From: a phage | Reading direction: 5' to 3' (one strand) | Sequence record: OZ346219.1 | Length of the DNA: 64,000 bases | Shown: positions 21,980 through 30,900 of the stretch, piece by piece | Numbering within the stretch: position 1 is the first letter of the stretch | Layout of the letters: the number at the start of each line of letters is the position of its first letter | Notes under the pieces: model-generated | Seen by the model: only the letters and a program-made list of their open reading frames with translations | Databases searched by the model: none | What the model was told of the DNA's origin: nothing | Program-made: the position numbers and the translations under genes

Positions 21980-22007
21980 ATTATACACTATTGCGTTACG
22001 CTGTCAA
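21980..22007 (-). promoter_or_regulatory. early-type promoter cassette
   Basis: TTGACA, 16 bp, TATAAT. Confidence 0.5.
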
Positions 22008-23180
22008 CTCTTTTTCAAAAGATTTTACAATATACATGATAGTGCTCAATTCAGACGGCGCTACTGTCTCTGTGTAGCCGTCCGGCATATCTTCTTTTGA
22101 GATATAGGAAGTTTTACCTTTCATAGCTTCCTTGATCTTGTTCTCTAATTCTAAGATCTTTTGACCATCTTGTAAAGTCAATTCATAAAAGATCTCGTGG
22201 TCGAACTGAGATTTACTGCTTTGTTGTTTTAGTCTTTTGGTGGTATTAGAATTTGTGACCCCAAATTTTACCCCGATTAATAAATGCTCTTTTATTAATT
22301 TTTGAATATACAGAGTTCCTTTTTTTAATGGATTGTACCCATATTTTGCACATTTAGGACATCGAGTTCCGTTCTGAAAATCAGTTATTCTAGGACTAAA
22401 TCCATGTCCATGATCACATAACAACTTTAATCTTGTATTCACACCTTTCCATTCATCTACAAAACCATTACATGTTATATTTTCTTCAACGAAAATTGGT
22501 TTAAGTCTTTCAAGATATTCTTCTTTTGAACGAGCATAGTTTTTTGCACACTTAAAACAACGTCTTCCCGCTTGAAAACTAGATATAATTGGATTAAATT
22601 CATGACCATACTCACACAATAAATTCATTTTTGTTTTGTTGCCGTTCCATTCACCAATAAATCCGTTAAAAATTATGTTCTCTTTTATGAAAATTGGTTT
22701 AAATCTTTCAAGATATTCTTCTTTTGATAAAGCATAATTATGTGCGCATTTAGGACATCGAGTCCCTCTCCGAAAATTTGTTATTGTCGGTGCAAATTCG
22801 TGTCCTTCACAACACACTAAATCTAACTTTGTGAATACACCTTTCCATTCATCTACAAAACCATTACATGTTATATTTTCTTCAACGAAAATTGGTTTAA
22901 GTCTTTCAAGATATTCTTCTTTTGATAAGGAATAATTATGTGCGCATCTAGGGCAACGTTTACCTTTTTGAAAATCTGATATTCTTGGTGTAAATTCATG
23001 TCCTTCACAACACACCAAACCCAATTTTGTTACGTTGCCTTTCCACTCACCAACAAATCCATTAAATACGATATTTTCTTTTTCGAAAATTGGTTTAAGT
23101 CTTTCGTAATATTCCGTAGGACTAATCGAGTTGTATTTTTTCTTAACCCATTCAATCTCATGAGCTTGACGTACTAACAT
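21996..23180 (-). CDS. tandem-repeat zinc-ribbon protein with T5orf172/GIY-YIG-like C-terminal domain
   Basis: Four repeats of about 62-66 aa (EEYLERLKPIF...NGFV.EWKG...CxxGHEF...RCPxCA) then GTLYIQKLIKEHLLIGVKFGVTNSNTTKRL; 85-bp exact DNA repeat at about 22438 and 22847. Confidence 0.6.
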   Translation of the reverse strand: MLVRQAHEIEWVKKKYNSISPTEYYERLKPIFEKENIVFNGFVGEWKGNVTKLGLVCCEGHEFTPRISDFQKGKRCPRCAHNYSLSKEEYLERLKPIFVEENITCNGFVDEWKGVFTKLDLVCCEGHEFAPTITNFRRGTRCPKCAHNYALSKEEYLERFKPIFIKENIIFNGFIGEWNGNKTKMNLLCEYGHEFNPIISSFQAGRRCFKCAKNYARSKEEYLERLKPIFVEENITCNGFVDEWKGVNTRLKLLCDHGHGFSPRITDFQNGTRCPKCAKYGYNPLKKGTLYIQKLIKEHLLIGVKFGVTNSNTTKRLKQQSSKSQFDHEIFYELTLQDGQKILELENKIKEAMKGKTSYISKEDMPDGYTETVAPSELSTIMYIVKSFEKELTA

Positions 23181-23299: not shown

Positions 23300-24274
23300 T
23301 TACATCCCTAACAGAGCGTCAAGATCATCCAGATCAGAAGCGGAGGAAGTACCGCCACCCAGGTCCAGAGATGCCATCAGATCATCAGCGGAAGAATCTA
23401 ACGCCGTGCTAGCTGCGTTAATACCAACTACAGTGCTAGCTGCGGTAGTACCAGCGTCGAATGCATTCATCTGTGCGTCAAAATCATCAAGCTGGCTGTT
23501 AATCGCTGCCGCAGCACTGGAAGCCGCCGCACCAGCTACCATAGAAACGCCCATAGTTTTCTTAAATTTGGTTTCCAGTTCATCGAACGGTTTAAACTGG
23601 CTAGGCGCTACAATCTCACTCAGATCAACCATGTTTTCCATCAGATATTTCTGATATGCTTCGTCTTCAATTTTCGGAAGCTGTGATTGCTGCATGAAAC
23701 GAGAATCGTCATAGTTCTGGTGTTTATCAACCTTCTTAGCTTTCAGGAGGAAGTTAGCACCGGAGAACACACAAGTTACATCTACCGGAACTTCGCCCAT
23801 GTCGGTATTCACGTTCACCATTGCAACGATCTTATCATAAATTTTCTGACCGAAGCGGAATTTGAATACCTTACCTTCATTTTCTGGTGCTTGAGGATCT
23901 TTCAGTACCAGAATATTTGCGTAGTAAGAGGCTTTACGCTTAATCAGTTGCCATTCTGTTTTATCGGTATTGTACAGGTCTTTTTCGTTAATATATTTGC
24001 ACACAGGGCAAGAATCAAAATCACCGTGGGTGCTTGAGCAGTTTTCCCAATACCATTTACCATTAACTTTGAAGGAATGGTTTACCAGTTTCACAATCGG
24101 CAGACCGTCTTCTGTCTTAGACGGCAGGAAGCGAATCAGGGCTTCACCGTTACCTGCTGCATCAGTCTTAATCTTCCACTCTTTCGGATCTTCTTTGGAG
24201 AAACCGTTGCCACCTTTCAGTGCGGCCAGTTGAGCTTGCAGTTTGGAAGAATCTTGACGACGAAACATGTTCAT
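23300..24274 (-). CDS. 32: single-stranded DNA-binding protein
   Basis: Strong match to T4 gp32 ([11 protein letters not shown]..., zinc site [12 protein letters not shown], acidic C-terminus); start may be Met3. Confidence 0.95.
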
Positions 24275-24334: not shown

Positions 24335-24931
24335 TTAATTGCTTGTCAATACTTTATCAATTATATCTAACAGTTTTGGCTTTCTATTTTCAAATTCTAA
24401 CATCTCTTCGGGAGAAATGTCAACTACTTCTGTTTTGTTGAAAAAGTTTGGGTCTATAGCATCAGCAACAAAGTTTCTCGCAAGTGCTGCCGCTTTCTCA
24501 TGGACATATATTCCCAAATATATCAACTTCTTTCTTTCGACCTGAATATTGGCAACATATTTACCATCTCGTTTATAAAGACTAACACCGATATATTCAG
24601 ACGATCGACCTTTCTGTTTACCCATATTTCTTGAGTTTTGTTGCTCGTTCGCATCTCTCAAGTTTTCAATCCGATTATCTGTTATAATTCGGTTAACATG
24701 GTCAACGTATTTTGGCATGTATCCATGATGCATAAAGAAAATTATTCTATGCTCTTTATGATGTTTACCATCGATACACACCAATCTGTATCCATGACTA
24801 GGATTAACTCCACCCGCTCTAGATCCGACTTTATGCTTTCGGTTTGTCGATATCTTGCGAATCAGCTTACCGTTATCATATTTAAAGAGTTCATGACAAC
24901 GAGCATACAATTCAGGATCATATGTTTTCAC
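24335..24931 (-). CDS. free-standing HNH homing endonuclease with AP2-like DNA-binding domain
   Basis: HRIIFFMHHGYMPKYVDHVNRIITDNRIENLR (HNH) followed by SEYIGVSLYKRDGKYVANIQ (AP2-like); inserted between genes 32 and 59. Confidence 0.75.
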   Translation of the reverse strand: MKTYDPELYARCHELFKYDNGKLIRKISTNRKHKVGSRAGGVNPSHGYRLVCIDGKHHKEHRIIFFMHHGYMPKYVDHVNRIITDNRIENLRDANEQQNSRNMGKQKGRSSEYIGVSLYKRDGKYVANIQVERKKLIYLGIYVHEKAAALARNFVADAIDPNFFNKTEVVDISPEEMLEFENRKPKLLDIIDKVLTSN

Positions 24932-25595
24932 CTTTTAACCTCGATATTTCTTTACACTCTTTAACTACTTTAACAAATAATGCTCTTGCTTTTGCGGCGT
25001 CAATAACAAGTAGTTTCTTGTACGCCTTCATTTTAACACTATAAGTTTGCCAAATCAAGTCTTTGGCTACCTTGTCGTGTTCGTCGATTATATTTAGAAA
25101 GCTATCTAACAACATAAACGACTCAAACGATATAATCCGATTTTGCAGTAGTTTAAAGATACCGCTAGTTTCGGTTGCGGGATTGTATGTAATTAGCTCT
25201 TTAAGAGTAACCCCGCGTTTCTCGGAGAAGTATACCAGACTTTTAATGTCATCGTCAAATCGTGTTGCTGCATCGGTTATCTTTCCTATGTATTCCATAT
25301 AAAAGCCGTATGCGTCAACATCAGTGATTTCACCTACCCATGCATCGGTATTAGCTACCAGATTGCTTAGGAATAGGAAGTATAATTCTCTTAGATTGTA
25401 CTTTTCCGCTAATTTCGCGAAATAATACTTATCTCTGCGTTTATTGAATGCGGCATCAGATAACCGCATCCTCCAATTGTATTTTACGCAATCATAACGC
25501 CCGTTCATATGAGCTTTCATCATGCAATATAACATATACACAGATTTAGCATTAATTCGCATATCTGGATCTGGAGGAAGACGGTTTCTGATCAT
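24918..25595 (-). CDS. 59: helicase loader (T4 gp59-like)
   Basis: KSVYMLYCMMKAHMNGRYDCVKYNWRMRLSDAAFNKRRDKYYF closely matches T4 gp59. Confidence 0.9.
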   Translation of the reverse strand: MIRNRLPPDPDMRINAKSVYMLYCMMKAHMNGRYDCVKYNWRMRLSDAAFNKRRDKYYFAKLAEKYNLRELYFLFLSNLVANTDAWVGEITDVDAYGFYMEYIGKITDAATRFDDDIKSLVYFSEKRGVTLKELITYNPATETSGIFKLLQNRIISFESFMLLDSFLNIIDEHDKVAKDLIWQTYSVKMKAYKKLLVIDAAKARALFVKVVKECKEISRLKGENI

Positions 25596-25604
25596 ACATA
25601 CCCC

Positions 25605-25874
25605 TTAAATATCGAGAGTGTTGGTCGGTTCGTCGATCACTCCCTTCCTGAGCGTTCTATTTACTATACATTCTTGTGTGATCTTGTCAATAATGGACAC
25701 CGGAATATATTTCTGATAGTGACAATATTCTATAGAGTTTTCCTCTACAAACTGAGTTGTCGCTTCAAGATAAGTCAATCCCTCTTCAACAACCAGTTTT
25801 TCGATTGCAAGACCGTTTGCTGTTTTATTCGCGGCTTTTACCGCATGTTCATTAAGCATTGAACACCCGATCAT
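25605..25874 (-). CDS. 33: late-transcription accessory protein (T4 gp33-like)
   Basis: GLTYLEATTQFVEENSI...PTNTLDI resembles T4 gp33; T4 position. Confidence 0.7.
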   Translation of the reverse strand: MIGCSMLNEHAVKAANKTANGLAIEKLVVEEGLTYLEATTQFVEENSIEYCHYQKYIPVSIIDKITQECIVNRTLRKGVIDEPTNTLDI

Positions 25875-26127
25875 AGAGTTCTACCGCTTCGTCGCGTTCT
25901 GCTTCGAAGGTTTCGCGCTGTTGCTGGTGATACAGTTTAAACAGAATGCCCCACATTTTACCATCTACGCCTAATTCTTCTTTAGCACGCTGTTTGATCT
26001 CTTTGATCTTATCGCCATATGCTTCTTGAATGGTTTTCTGATCGCTGGCTTCTTTAATCAGTTGCGCCAGGGTATTTCCGTGTACATTTTCATCGAATAC
26101 TACTTTTTCTTTTTTCTGTTCAGTCAT
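25852..26127 (-). CDS. dsbA: DsbA-like dsDNA-binding protein (by position and size)
   Basis: 91 aa; sits between 33 and rnh as in T4; no motif checked. Confidence 0.45.
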   Translation of the reverse strand: MTEQKKEKVVFDENVHGNTLAQLIKEASDQKTIQEAYGDKIKEIKQRAKEELGVDGKMWGILFKLYHQQQRETFEAERDEAVELYDRVFNA

Positions 26128-26132
26128 AATAT

Positions 26133-26729
26133 TTAACCCTCTTTCGTCATTAATTGAAAACCACGTTCAGCTTTTGAAATTTCGCTAGGACTTAAATCGT
26201 CACCAACATATTCTAGCATCATTTCTCGGATAATGTCAAGTGCTTTTTCATCACCTGATTTTAACTCGAACTCAAGTTCATAGTGAGCCTCTCCCATTCT
26301 TTCGCCGACTTTGCAATAATAGAAAGTGTCTTTGCACATTTCCACTATAGCACCCTCAAGGTCAAGTGTCAATGACTTGCGGTATGTCATTACTTGCAAT
26401 AAAGGAACGATAAGGTCGGAGTTTACGCCTAGACTATCAACATAATGATAGAAATCATCCATTGTTGAAAAAGTAATTTCTTCTCGGTTGAAGAGTCCAG
26501 ATTCACTATCACCTATTTTGACCATGATCAATGATCTATTAACGTCAAGTCGAGCATAAATTCCTTTTCGACGCAGTGCATGATCTTCGGTATCATAATA
26601 AAATTCGTGTTTTAGAGTGTTAGCACGATCTACTAGATTGTACCCGTCATACATTGCTACCCACAAATCACAGATTGTTTCGACGCCAATTTGTGAGTGT
26701 GCATAGTATTTTAATTCAAGTTCTTTCAT
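26133..26729 (-). CDS. CYTH-like (triphosphate tunnel metalloenzyme) domain protein
   Basis: N-terminal ELELKYY (ExExK) and C-terminal ELEFELK acidic motifs; 198 aa; no counterpart at this position in T4. Confidence 0.5.
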   Translation of the reverse strand: MKELELKYYAHSQIGVETICDLWVAMYDGYNLVDRANTLKHEFYYDTEDHALRRKGIYARLDVNRSLIMVKIGDSESGLFNREEITFSTMDDFYHYVDSLGVNSDLIVPLLQVMTYRKSLTLDLEGAIVEMCKDTFYYCKVGERMGEAHYELEFELKSGDEKALDIIREMMLEYVGDDLSPSEISKAERGFQLMTKEG

Positions 26730-26739
26730 ATATCAACCC

Positions 26740-27687
26740 TTAGAACTCACCAATTTTCTGCAACATTTTAACTAACGCATTTGTTACAAAATAGTTATAA
26801 ATTTTACCGCGTGGTGCTGGTTTAGATTTCTCCCATGCTAACAAAATTTCATATTCGATGTTATCAGGAATAAATTCAAAATCAATAAGTTCGCGGTTTT
26901 CGTCAAAGCGTCGTGCTTCTTCCTCTGTCATCAAAGACTTTGGATCTTCGGCATCGAAAATTTGCTCTAACCATTTGGTTGCAATTGGTTTAGCTCGTTC
27001 TCCTTCCAGTCGTGAGATAATGAAATCACTACGGCACTTGATCGAAGCTACACCGTCTTTTGCGTCACCCTTAACACATTTTACCATAAGGTCTTTGTAA
27101 GGGCTACCATATTTGCATTTCTTCCATGCTTTCTGTACTGGTGCCCACTGTTTCACATTTTTGTATTTGTGCAACTGTGTGTAGTCACCATCGCCGGAGT
27201 TGATTAGCACCTGGCGACCTTCTACAGAAAACTTTTTAGTTAACACAGCGATTATATCATCCGCTTCAACTTTGTCAACCTTAATAACGTGATAAGGCAT
27301 GTTCTCTTTAAACTCTTCGGTGATCTTATTGATCGCAGAAAAGATCATCTCCCAATCACGCGGATCTGCGTCTCGTTTTTCCTTACGGTTGCGTTTATAG
27401 TAAGGTGCGATATCACGTCGCCAGTAACCTTTGCTTGAATCAAAGGCAAGTACCGTAATTGGGTATTGCTCTTTGAATTTTGTCATATTATAACGCATGG
27501 TGTCAAGGATAAGATGACGGATCATGCCTTCATTAATAGGATCTTCCGGTTTAAAGGTATGTGAGATAGTAGCAATCATAAGCTGCGACATATCAATCAA
27601 ATGCACACCTTCCGGCAGTTTATCTTCTGGATCATCAAAGAAATCATTAAGTGTAGCGGTAGTTTTTGTAAACGGGTTATACGTCAT
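26740..27687 (-). CDS. rnh: RNase H / 5'-3' exonuclease
   Basis: 315 aa; matches T4 RNase H (GYWRRD, EADD, SGDGDYTQL, RGKIY). Confidence 0.9.
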   Translation of the reverse strand: MTYNPFTKTTATLNDFFDDPEDKLPEGVHLIDMSQLMIATISHTFKPEDPINEGMIRHLILDTMRYNMTKFKEQYPITVLAFDSSKGYWRRDIAPYYKRNRKEKRDADPRDWEMIFSAINKITEEFKENMPYHVIKVDKVEADDIIAVLTKKFSVEGRQVLINSGDGDYTQLHKYKNVKQWAPVQKAWKKCKYGSPYKDLMVKCVKGDAKDGVASIKCRSDFIISRLEGERAKPIATKWLEQIFDAEDPKSLMTEEEARRFDENRELIDFEFIPDNIEYEILLAWEKSKPAPRGKIYNYFVTNALVKMLQKIGEF

Positions 27688-27689
27688 AA

Positions 27690-27875
27690 TTAAGTTCTCT
27701 CCACTCTCACAACAACATATTCGCCAAACGAGTTAGATACTTCACGATCATACCCGTACTTCTCCATAACTCGCAGAATTGCATTGTTTAATTCAGCACG
27801 GAAATAATTATAATCCTTATCAGGGATTCTGTCAACTACCCATTTTGCACCTTCTGACAAATCAACTTTAACCAT
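27690..27875 (-). CDS. hypothetical protein (61 aa)
   Basis: ORF between rnh and the plus-strand gene 34. Confidence 0.35.
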   Translation of the reverse strand: MVKVDLSEGAKWVVDRIPDKDYNYFRAELNNAILRVMEKYGYDREVSNSFGEYVVVRVERT

Positions 27876-27913
27876 AATTTATCATCCTCTTTTGTTTCTA
27901 TCAAGCCTCATTT

Positions 27914-27921
27914 TATAAATA
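27914..27921 (+). promoter_or_regulatory. T4-type late promoter motif TATAAATA upstream of gene 34
   Basis: Exact TATAAATA about 29 nt before ATG at 27950; AAGGAG ribosome-binding site at 27936-27941. Confidence 0.6.
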
Positions 27922-27949
27922 TGAACATACTATAAAAGGAGACCCAATA

Positions 27950-30900
27950 ATGGCAGATTTTTCTCAACATTTCAAGGCCACATTTGGCTTTGACGCTGGT
28001 AATGAAAAGGTCGTCAATGTAGCATTGGCTGATAAGAATGTCAACACCGATGCGGTCAACGTTGAATTTTTCAATTACCATAATGGTATTACTCAGTATG
28101 ACACAACTCGCGGTTATGATCAATACGGAACTACAATCTATCAAAACCGTCCGTATTATGCAAAAGAAGATATCACAAAGCCAGCAGGAGATTTTGACCC
28201 GACTAAATGGCAAGCACTGCGCACGGACCCACGTTGGGATTATATTGCAGCAACTTCCGGTGATACTCCTTTACAGTCTGGCGATTATATCGCAGCAGAT
28301 GGTCAATTTGCAAACTTGACTTTCTCTATGCCAACTAAACCAGCAGAGGGAGACACTATAACAGTAAAAGATATCGGTGGCAAGTGTGGTGTTAACGAAT
28401 TATCGTTCTTGAGTACAGGACATGAGTTTTACCATAATGGTAATGTGTATAACAGAAAATGGTATTGCACTACCCCGTATGCAATGAACTATTTCATCTT
28501 TGTTCGGAATCGTTGGCATGTTTATCAGACAGGAACAGAGCCACGCGGTGTGTACGCACAGCCAGCGATTGATGCTATTCAAATGCAGAATGGTGATCAG
28601 GTATTTCGTCGTAGTTCGTTGGGTAATATTACCTTAGTGCTTCCTAAGTTTGCCAACAATGGCGACATGATCCAGACTACAGACCTTGACGGATTAACCG
28701 CAACCAACCACGTTACGGTTAAAGTTCATGAGCACGCAGAAGAACAATCAATTGGCACGTCCGGTCTAAAAGAGATTATCGGTAAGCGTAGCGGTCATGG
28801 TGTATTCATCTTTGACAAGACGGAAAACTTATGGCGTTTGTGGGATGGTGATCAGTCTGTTCGTCTTAAACCGATCATCAATGACACTCGCTTGCAACCT
28901 AATAGCTATGTTGCTGTATTTGGTGGTCGTGATGTTACTCTGACGCTGCCGACCAATGTCGAGCCGGGTGATCGTATTCAAGTTTCTATGCAGTATATGC
29001 ACGGAAACCAGACTTGCCGAATCATTACCTCAGAAGAGGATACAAAAATCCTTATGCAGAAAAACATGGTTCAGTTTCCTAAGCGTAGCGAGTACCCATT
29101 CAATGGGACCGATACATGGACTGGAGTGTCTGAATTGTCTTTCAACGCTGCAAATGATTATGTACCTTATCTGGAGTTCTCTTATTCAGAAGGTGATGAT
29201 GGTAAGAAATACTGGTTGGTGGCACATGCTCACCCGATTGTAGAACGAGTAGATCCGACTCGTAAAGATCGTGTTGGTGTAATTGCACTGGCTACCCAGA
29301 CTGAAACGAATAAAAACCATGAAGAGAATCCTAGCGACGAAGTTGCTGTAACACCAAAAATGCTGGCTAATAAAACAGCCAACGAAACTCGACGCGGTAT
29401 TGCTCGCATTGCGACTCAAGCGGAAACGCATCAAGATACTGGTTCCAACTTCCTGGATGATGTTATCGTTACACCCAAAAAGTTAAATGACTGTGTTGCT
29501 ACCGAAGCCCGTCGTGGTGTGATGGAAATTGCAACCCAGCACGAAACCAATGAAGGTTTAGACGATACCCGCGCTATTACTCCTAAGAAATTAGAAGAAC
29601 GTCGCGCTTCCGAAGATCTAGCTGGTATTGCTGAAATTGTTCAGGCTGGCGGTAGTGCTGCCGCTCGACGTGGCGAAGCTGGTACAGGGATCTATAACAT
29701 CAACGACCATGCTAAAATTGTTACGCCACAAAACATCAACGAAGTCAAGGCGACCGAAACTTCCCGTGGTGTTGGCTATCTGGCAACTGACGCGGAAGTG
29801 CAAGGGGCTACAGAATCAACCCCGCAAGATGCTTTACTAATCACGACTCGCACGCTAACGAAACGTACTGCTACCGAATCGCGCACTGGTATCGCTGAAA
29901 TTGCAACTCAGGAAGAAACAAACTTAGGTCAAAGTGATAACCATATCATCACGCCTAAAAAGCTGCATACTCGCCGCGCAACTGAAACTTTACATGGTTT
30001 AGCAGAAATTGCAACTCAACCGGAGTTTGACGCAGGTCGTGACGATTCTCGCATTTCTACCCCATTGAAGATTAAAACCTTCTTTGAGAATGCACAGCGT
30101 TTGAAAGTAGATCCGACTCAGGGGCTTAACCTTACTGGTGATTTGTGGCAAGGTATCATGATCAGCGGTCTGGATGCAACCGAAGACACAAAAGGTGTCG
30201 CTAAAGTTGCGACTACTCAGCTTACTGACGCTGGTCAAGATGATACTACAATCATCACGCCTAAAAAGCTGCAAGGCAAAAAGGCCACCGAAGGTAAAGA
30301 AGGTATTATCCGAGTTGGTACTCAAGCCGAAACCGTGGCTGGTATTATGGACAATGTAGCAATTTCTCCGAAGAACTTCAAATATGTTGTTCAGACAGAG
30401 GATACATGGAAAGCAACCGAAGCGCGTCGTGGATTCTTGAAAGTTGCTACTCAGGAAAACTGTTTTGTTGGTGATAATCTGCAAGGTTCTACTCAAGAAC
30501 TAGGAAACTACCAGCATGACGGAATTGCTGTTACCCCTAAAGGATTAAACTACGCACTTGCTAATTTCTTACCTAAGATGGCAACCGCTCAGAATAGTTT
30601 GAAATTGGGTAACGTAGAGGCCTCTAAATGGGCGCGTAGAGACATTGACCAGACCATTGAGAGCAATTACACGTTTAATAAAAACGTTAACGTGAAGGGC
30701 GATTTAGAGTGCTTAAAATCTGGTTCCTTTGAAACTCTGTCTGTGACTAAGAACTCGACCGATGTTCCGAGTAATGGTCATCTGGTGTTGGGTGAGCGTG
30801 GAGTTGACGGTCACACCGGAATTACTCTGCATGGCACAACCGCATCGGAAGGCATGAAAAACTCTTGGTCTATTATCGTTGGTGGTACTGGAACAGCGCA

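Follow-up and report, generated by a model that had tools for sequence, protein, structure and literature searches.

Which enzyme is encoded by the gene that separates dsbA from rnh in the phage sequence OZ346219.1, and on what substrate would it act? The stretch analysed here (the window, 64,000 nucleotides (nt)) carries at positions 26133-26729, on the minus strand, an open reading frame (ORF) of 198 codons in a slot that is empty in T4, where dsbA and rnh are adjacent, 8 nt apart. The original prediction, made from the sequence, had read the product as a CYTH-type triphosphate-tunnel protein inserted between these two genes and lacking in T4, which could act on nucleotide pools or on nucleotide-based immune signals of the host. 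Both the placement and the T4 comparison proved correct (Table 1), as did the N-terminus MKELELKYY, which supplies the E3-x-E5-x-K7 motif.

The ORF is a genuine gene and not a chance reading frame, since every one of the 59 Krischvirus-type records contains it, its ratio of nonsynonymous to synonymous divergence (dN/dS) is ~0.3, and it is tightly packed between its neighbours with Shine-Dalgarno-like sites. These 59 records, all of Krischvirus (RB49-like) phages, are 90-99% identical to the window over the 2.3 kb surrounding the gene. The start codon lies 10 nt past the rnh stop codon and the stop codon 5 nt ahead of the dsbA start. A Shine-Dalgarno-like AAGGG (26737-26741) overlaps the rnh stop codon, and the corresponding GAGGG of dsbA (26137-26141) is within the last codons of the CYTH gene. 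In the ORF list no competing frame of 40 or more amino acids was found on the opposite strand over 26133-26729. Base composition gave no foreign signature when the GC content of the gene (37.5%) was compared with that of the window (40.4%).

Fold and catalytic residues

The product scored 27.2 bits against the Pfam CYTH profile (PF01928; gathering score 23.2, E 3.9e-6), and an HHalign comparison with 28 generic CYTH proteins gave a probability of 99.8% (E 5.6e-29). No Pfam domain besides CYTH was found in the 198-residue protein, which ends after the plug helix mentioned below, and an NCBIfam scan of it returned no match. Distant members of the clade score at or under the gathering threshold of the Pfam profile. 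The AlphaFold2 model, made from 16 family members, is confident (predicted local distance difference test (pLDDT) 90.9, predicted template-modelling score (pTM) 0.84), consists of eight long strands plus one short one, and matches solved triphosphate-tunnel enzymes. The best Foldseek match in the PDB is E. coli YgiF (5a60; E 8e-13, TM-score normalized to the query (TMq) 0.78, 24% identity), which is also the sole PDB entry matched by sequence (HMMER). It is followed by bh2851, plant TTM3/HpAC1 (AtTTM3), thiamine triphosphatase (ThTPase) and SaTTM; class IV cyclases (CyaB, ranks 27-37) and Cet1-type RNA triphosphatases appear lower. Nearly all of the 44 PDB matches at E<1e-3 are CYTH or triphosphate tunnel metalloenzyme (TTM) structures, with a few chains of the Mediator complex among them. 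By profile and predicted structure the product of 26133-26729 is thus a CYTH/triphosphate-tunnel enzyme, and neither of the two outcomes that would have contradicted the original prediction (a missing CYTH profile match or a model lacking the eight-strand tunnel) was obtained.

This assignment is correct, but it is not new, because it was already present in GenBank and in the literature. The window protein is 98.5% identical to RB49ORF244c and matches phrog_14893 (E 2.8e-132), which PHROG annotates as 'unknown function'. The GenBank entry AY343333 for RB49ORF244c carries "similar to ... ygiF", and the protein is among the Pfam CYTH matches listed by Nolan et al. (2006), at E = 0.0026, so that the domain call dates from 2003-2006. 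In most records the protein is labelled hypothetical; the label is "inorganic triphosphatase" in two and "adenylate cyclase" in four. Literature searches found no functional study of the RB49ORF244c family or of any phage CYTH protein. As far as these searches show, the remodelled wall of strands beta3, beta2 and beta4 and the recombining allele cassette, both described below, seem to be unreported.

Judged from the sequence, the catalytic layout of CYTH enzymes, consisting of ExExK, the ExE of beta8 and the lysines and arginines of the tunnel, is intact, with the second beta3 arginine (Asp in the phage protein) as the exception. The original prediction had recognized the motif ELEFELK correctly but had placed it at the end of the protein. 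It occupies residues 151-157 in strand beta8, and the 41 residues that follow form a helix and a C-terminal 'plug' helix (SKAERG) in the model. Across family members that are 49-95% identical, E3, E5, K7, R60, D62, K71, R82 and E84 are invariant, as are R117, D134, E151, E153, E155, K157, K186 and R189. For a wider comparison, the 146 nearest CYTH representatives, obtained by an exhaustive search of 1.84 billion proteins (6 matches below 1e-10), and seven clade members were aligned to one profile. E3, E5, K7, R60, K71, R82, E84, R117, E153, E155 and K186 are invariant in the clade and occur in 137-146 of the 146 relatives. The ExExK columns are invariant in the family and in every relative aligned there (137-138 of 146, the remainder being gaps). 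For the YgiF residues E4, E6, K69, E160 and E162, structures and mutagenesis have demonstrated the roles (Martinez et al. 2015); for the beta8 ligands these roles are also given by Vogt et al. (2021).

Published signatures distinguish hydrolases from cyclases within this fold. Class IV cyclases need HFxxxxExExK, and carry ExA on beta8 where hydrolases carry ExE (Vogt et al. 2021). In the phage protein ExExK is preceded by M-K alone, so that the HF motif is absent, and E153-F-E155 is intact and hydrolase-like. Because HFxxxxExExK is missing and the beta8 ExE is intact, a hydrolase is preferred over a cyclase: the product is most likely a two-metal phosphohydrolase that would remove the terminal phosphate from a triphosphate-bearing small molecule, and the enzyme is probably active.

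The automatic annotation 'adenylate cyclase' in PHB13, AV108 and KMB43 would instead make the product a class IV (CyaB-type) enzyme whose cyclic AMP manipulates CRP regulation of the host. Such cyclases (CyaB; Yersinia pestis AC-IV, 2fjt, 3n0y) do share the CYTH superfamily and fold and were among the Foldseek matches, but only at ranks 27-37 with TMq 0.47-0.48. The HF that they require sits four residues ahead of ExExK, where the phage protein has nothing but M-K; its beta8 motif is ExE and not ExA; and the first beta3 arginine is kept in the alignment register favoured below. The alternative HMMER register would turn that arginine into tyrosine, which is still not a small residue. The closest relative, YgiF, has no cyclase activity. 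With the HF and ExA signatures both missing, the cyclase reading was rejected as hardly credible. The 'adenylate cyclase' label found in several GenBank records conflicts with the published signatures and should not be carried forward.

Loss of one canonical arginine (see below) might also point to a non-catalytic binder that sequesters a phosphorylated ligand in its tunnel, and phage 'sponge' proteins are a known strategy. However, the four metal-binding glutamates and the catalytic arginines and lysines are invariant over sequences only 31-58% identical, as would be expected under selection for catalysis, and we consider a pure binder very improbable.

The hydrolase reading suggests the following mechanism. 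The protein would function as a stand-alone CYTH TTM, into whose eight-stranded beta-barrel the substrate triphosphate threads. The triphosphate would be gripped by K7, R60, K71, R82, R117, K186 and R189 together with the clade-specific K40. Metal 1 would link the phosphates to E153, and metal 2, bound by E3, E5 and E155, would activate a water molecule, leading to cleavage of the terminal phosphate.

The remodelled tunnel wall and the substrate

Vogt et al. (2021) distinguish three beta3 motifs: generic triphosphatases have small-x-R-x-R, thiamine triphosphatases W/Y-x-R-x-R, and cyclases small-x-[V/C/L]-x-R. How the phage strand compares with them depends on the alignment register. In the ungapped pairwise HMMER alignment, Y58 falls on Arg-56, the catalytic arginine of YgiF. 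MAFFT, run with 24 generic relatives, and HHalign, on the other hand, introduce a two-residue deletion into the beta3-beta4 hairpin and make R60 the first arginine. In the model beta3 comprises residues 57-62 and beta4 residues 67-76, which places K71 opposite Y58; in the generic sequence RIRxxGxxxxTLK (turn +5/+6) the partner of the conserved lysine is likewise the residue two positions ahead of the first arginine. We therefore favour the MAFFT/HHalign register, which the pairing geometry of the predicted hairpin appears to support as far as strand register goes. Whichever register is used, the clade has only one beta3 arginine.

The column tabulation from the 146 relatives and seven clade members carries the MAFFT register, because the profile was made from the MAFFT alignment. 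The first arginine, R60, is found in 144 of the relatives and in all seven clade members. Two residues further on, at column 62, 142 of the 146 relatives have arginine and 7/7 clade members Asp or Asn. Column 58 is A, S, G or T in 130/146 and aromatic in 2/146; the clade has Y, S, V or I. Column 69 is Thr in 130/146 relatives (M, L or T in the clade). At column 40, Leu predominates among the relatives (80/146) and neither Lys nor Arg occurs (0/146), whereas all seven clade members have Lys. The small-x-R-x-R of the generic TTM tripolyphosphatases (YgiF, NeuTTM, CthTTM) is accordingly absent, and [Y/S/V/I]-x-R-x-[D/N] is found in 7/7 clade members. From strand register, positions 40, 58, 60, 62, 69 and 71 are all predicted to line the tunnel, on three neighbouring strands, K40 lying across from D62. 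The clade thus appears to have retained the metal sites and the catalytic arginine and lysine residues and to have rebuilt one substrate-binding wall. From these changes (R to D62, L to K40, T to M69, small residue to Y58) we predict that an organic, nucleotide-like triphosphate is likelier to be the preferred substrate than tripolyphosphate on its own.

Several points weigh against the overall reading of the gene. The activity and role of the family members are predictions from sequence and model. Tyr58 varies in the wider clade, being replaced by S in P0030, V in P0044 and I in P0045 (P numbers designate collected family sequences). If the HMMER register holds, activity could be weak or different. 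The promoter assignments given below are consensus matches only. Finally, YgiF, the closest relative of known structure, hydrolyses inorganic tripolyphosphate (PPPi) with fair specificity, which makes PPPi a serious candidate.

The likelihoods attached to individual substrates here are rough and compare alternatives within the hydrolase reading, cyclase and binder forming the remainder; their sum was not forced to one. An inorganic tripolyphosphatase (PPPase) or short-chain polyphosphatase like the YgiF tunnel domain would clear PPPi or fragments of polyphosphate (polyP) in the course of infection, or free phosphate for DNA synthesis. It would agree with the position of YgiF as best structural and sole sequence match in the PDB and with the label that two GenBank records already bear; both YgiF and NeuTTM act specifically as PPPases, and this is possibly the ancestral CYTH activity. 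The YgiF tunnel domain (5a60/5a61; from a CYTH-CHAD protein) has the same size of ~200 residues, and ExExK, K69/K71, E160/E153, E162/E155 (YgiF/phage) and most basic tunnel residues correspond. The two differ in beta3 (G-x-R-x-R in YgiF, Y-x-R-x-D in the phage protein), in K40 and M69 of the phage protein, which are Leu and Thr in YgiF, and in the beta3-beta4 hairpin, which is two residues shorter in the phage. Replacement by Asp or Asn of the second beta3 arginine present in 142/146 relatives lowers the positive charge of a tunnel that has to hold a strongly charged anion, and three adjacent positions of the wall are changed as well. In addition, the phage protein lacks the polyP-binding CHAD domain. 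The benefit of a PPPase to the phage is doubtful, because pyrophosphatase accounts for the overwhelming part of PPPase activity in E. coli and knocking out ygiF caused no change. Taken together, PPPi hydrolysis is a serious possibility, though less likely than not.

An ordinary or modified nucleotide triphosphate, hydrolysed in a housekeeping role, is a possible substrate, only slightly more likely than PPPi, and we hold this view tentatively. Phage CYTH and MazG enzymes have been suggested to degrade nucleotides (Iyer et al. 2021). Exclusion of deoxycytidine triphosphate (dCTP) in connection with DNA modification was considered and rejected. Krischvirus phages lack known hydroxymethylase and glucosyltransferase genes, and SAP, with fully modified cytosines, is 99.96% identical to TB34, with canonical ones (2026 study, PMC13390438). 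SAP and TB34 matched the window protein with equal identity and score, so they apparently carry the same CYTH allele, and the gene therefore does not explain the cytosine difference between them.

A place in the thiamine triphosphatase subgroup was considered as well. The mammalian 25-kDa ThTPase (3bhd, 5a64), of the W/Y-x-R-x-R subgroup, has the same tunnel fold (E ~1e-7), and the ExE motif and the hydrolase chemistry, which is predicted for the phage enzyme, are intact in both. Its W53, which stacks against the organic moiety of the substrate (Martinez et al. 2015; Vogt et al. 2021), stands two residues before the first beta3 arginine, as does phage Y58, and in the MAFFT/HHalign register this position is aromatic only in enzymes of the thiamine-triphosphatase type. 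However, R57 of ThTPase, the second arginine of the motif, corresponds to Asp in the phage protein, identity is only 15-18%, and Y58 is S, V or I in some clade members. Nothing suggests that thiamine triphosphate matters in infection.

The gene might also encode an RNA 5'-triphosphatase that acts on the triphosphorylated primers which RNase H, encoded next to it, releases or processes, or on the 5' ends of mRNA, thereby altering mRNA stability. Such an activity would make sense of the tight translational packing directly behind rnh, since RNase H works on 5'-triphosphorylated primers. The tunnel fold also occurs in triphosphatases of the Cet1 type and in those of viral capping, which were among the weaker structural matches. 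Their similarity (Cet1, mimivirus, vaccinia; E 1e-4 to 4e-3, TMq 0.40-0.57) is nevertheless far below that of the CYTH enzymes acting on small molecules, gene adjacency is weak evidence of function in T4-type genomes, and T4 processes its primers without such an enzyme. This activity appears quite improbable.

Distribution and exchange of alleles

The RB49ORF244c family is small and limited to T4-like phages. By tblastn (E < 1e-5) it was found in Krischvirus-type phages only, a scan of IMG/VR added three further Krischvirus-like loci and no more, and in the viral structure library BFVD the neighbours outside the family were at most 16% identical. Other viruses also encode tunnel enzymes, such as Aeh1ORF004c, jumbo-phage triphosphatases and the capping RNA triphosphatases of mimivirus and poxviruses. 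The Aeh1, jumbo-phage and giant-virus enzymes are not close relatives and are encoded at other genomic positions, and the capping enzymes are multidomain proteins.

All members with readable context sit between rnh and dsbA-gp33, down to 34% identity. The divergent members P0043, P0044 and P0045 (48%, 40% and 34% identity, respectively) occupy this same slot, and dsbA and gp33 at their loci are 69-81% identical to the window copies. The gene is therefore old in the lineage and has been kept in place, diverging about twice as fast as its neighbours.

Within the genus Krischvirus the gene has a mosaic structure. The DNA of rnh, dsbA, gp33, gp59 and gp32 shows 96-99% identity to phage Skers, whereas codons 16-149 of the CYTH gene have 40-60% nucleotide identity and synonymous divergence (proportion of synonymous differences (pS) and dS) is saturated. 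Codons 150-198, by contrast, are 98-100% identical to Skers and Phi1, third positions included. When the collected full-length family sequences (at least 180 amino acids) and the window protein were clustered, at least four deep classes (RB49/Phi1, P0035, Skers and P0042) were obtained, lying on backbones that are 95-99% identical. The central regions of the RB49/Phi1, Skers and P0042 classes are 39-44% identical to each other, and the copy in a phage of a different genus-level group is at 42%. P0035 is intermediate, with 59-62% identity to alleles of the RB49/Phi1 group and 39-47% to the Skers and P0042 classes. The P0042 allele, 58% identical overall, is carried on a backbone with 99.7% identity in RNase H. 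The C-terminal 49 residues are 88-100% identical across the allele classes. Such a distribution is what would be expected if the central 140 codons had been replaced through recombination with diverged alleles, and not if they had hypermutated in place. Positive selection in the cassette was rejected, as dN/dS there is 0.3-0.4 and not above 1; like the value of ~0.3 for the gene, this indicates purifying selection.

In phage vB_EcoM_G2494 (MK327935.1) the gene is represented by two coding sequences of 66 and 130 amino acids at 601-1196, which is consistent with a 1-nt frameshift. The 130-residue truncated form is present in protein databases (P0034; BFVD A0A482GBZ4). The split could be a natural pseudogene or a sequencing error; unless it is such an error, growth in the laboratory does not require the gene. 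Since it is split in the viable vB_EcoM_G2494 and absent from T4, the CYTH gene would be accessory rather than essential, yet kept in its slot across a whole branch of T4-like phages.

These properties bear on the proposal of a counter-defence enzyme that would dephosphorylate a nucleotide-derived immune molecule or a toxic nucleotide, allele turnover reflecting an arms race. Candidate targets would be a chain-terminating nucleoside triphosphate analogue, an alarmone (pppApp, pppGpp) or a linear oligonucleotide signal with a 5'-triphosphate. Several features are in keeping with it: the catalytic core is conserved while the rest of the protein diverges fast, four or more deep alleles recombine onto backbones 95-99% identical, the gene is accessory and lineage-specific, and the tunnel wall is altered. 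However, PADLOC gave no family at E up to 1, the protein matched no anti-defence family, and literature searches yielded no link between CYTH and anti-defence; in the PIWI paper CYTH is mentioned solely in connection with Mediator. To our knowledge, the phage enzymes known to degrade such signals have other folds. A dN/dS of 0.3 indicates purifying and not positive selection, and recombination with diverged relatives explains the deep alleles without an arms race. A counter-defence role is thus unlikely. The same holds for the more specific proposal that the RB49ORF244c family constitutes a new specificity class of tunnel enzymes, in which the wall formed by Y58, D62, K40 and M69 would recognize a nucleotide-derived molecule that the infected host produces, such as those just named, and inactivate it by removal of the terminal phosphate, the recombining deep alleles being the trace of an arms race with host immunity: such a class is conceivable but improbable.

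Transcription signals, neighbouring genes and significance

Coordinates of the gene, its motifs and modules, the neighbouring genes and two candidate promoters are listed in Table 1.

Table 1. Features of the CYTH gene and its surroundings in the window
Feature	Position	Strand	Remarks
CYTH/triphosphate-tunnel metalloenzyme gene (predicted), 198 amino acids	26133..26729	-	Orthologue of RB49ORF244c, phrog_14893
ExExK motif E3, E5, K7, strand beta1	26709..26723	-	E3/E5 = YgiF E4/E6, putative metal-2 ligands
K40, clade-specific lysine, strand beta2	26610..26612	-	Predicted neighbour of D62, from strand register
Beta3 motif Y58-A-R60-L-D62	26544..26558	-	R60, putative catalytic first Arg; D62 replaces second Arg
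M69-V-K71, strand beta4	26517..26525	-	K71 = YgiF K69; M69 replaces Thr (130/146 relatives)
Beta8 motif E151-L-E153-F-E155-L-K157	26259..26279	-	E153 = YgiF E160 (metal 1); E155 = YgiF E162 (metal 2)
Variable cassette, codons 10-149	26283..26702	-	At least four deep allele classes on near-identical phage backbones
Conserved 3' module, codons 150-198 + stop: beta8, helix, plug helix	26133..26282	-	Behaves like backbone DNA
rnh, T4-type RNase H / 5'-3' exonuclease, upstream neighbour	26740..27687	-	Pfam RNaseH_C, 5_3_exonuc_N
dsbA, late-transcription dsDNA-binding protein, downstream neighbour	25852..26127	-	Pfam Phage_DsbA E 5.4e-22
gp32	23300-24274	-	T4-type
HNH-AP2 homing endonuclease	24335-24931	-	
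gp59	24918-25595	-	T4-type
gp33	25605-25874	-	T4-type
61-amino-acid ORF	27690-27875	-	phrog_3594, unknown function
gp34		+	Beyond the 61-amino-acid ORF
Perfect sigma70-type promoter match TTGACA-17-TATAAT, upstream of rnh	27807..27835	-	Consensus scan; candidate early promoter
Sigma70-like site TTGACA-18-TAGAAT, in CYTH 3' module, just upstream of dsbA	26210..26239	-	Consensus scan

The candidate promoter upstream of rnh is located inside the 61-residue ORF, and 27-28 of its 29 bases are kept in RB49, Skers, Phi1 and L006. The site in the CYTH 3' module is kept in the same four phages, in all allele types. Altogether 17 sigma70-type promoter-like sites, nearly all of them on the minus strand, were counted in 25500-28000, compared with 7.2 +/- 2.5 in shuffled sequences. 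Two of the 17 are perfect (12/12), and the excess lies inside coding sequence; further minus-strand sites are at 27251-27278, 26344-26372 and 25663-25690. The single terminator-like site of the region is on the plus strand, within rnh. We infer from this arrangement that rnh, the CYTH gene and dsbA are co-transcribed, probably early, and that the enzyme would be made from this transcription unit.

The 61-residue ORF upstream of rnh is conserved and has no counterpart in the rnh-gp34 interval of T4. Between gp32 and gp59, the HNH-AP2 endonuclease gene shares 14 nt with the end of gp59; the window and Skers have it, RB49 and Phi1 do not. In T4 the gp32/gp59 slot holds an unrelated GIY-YIG endonuclease, SegG. 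With HNH-AP2 here and SegG in T4, this site is seemingly a recurrent target of mobile endonucleases. A 394-residue ORF (21996-23180, minus strand), at the position of RB49ORF239c and Phi1 ORF240, encodes four tandem repeats of ~55 amino acids, each with a zinc-ribbon-like CCEGHEF...RCPxCA pattern, followed by a distinct C-terminal domain; its Skers counterpart is annotated 'GIY-YIG nuclease family'.

By prediction, the CYTH gene encodes an accessory enzyme from a well-known superfamily. Its domain identity was made public about twenty years ago, and the finding is not a discovery as such. The coordinated change of four wall residues, nearly absent in the 146 nearest relatives, predicts a substrate other than tripolyphosphate. 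The gene also appears as a local hotspot of allele exchange in a highly conserved block of replication and late-transcription genes, a pattern frequent in host-interaction genes. If the substrate is PPPi or ordinary nucleoside triphosphates, it would be a housekeeping gene of metabolism; if it is an immune or stress nucleotide, the family would add a new fold to the counter-defence repertoire of phages.

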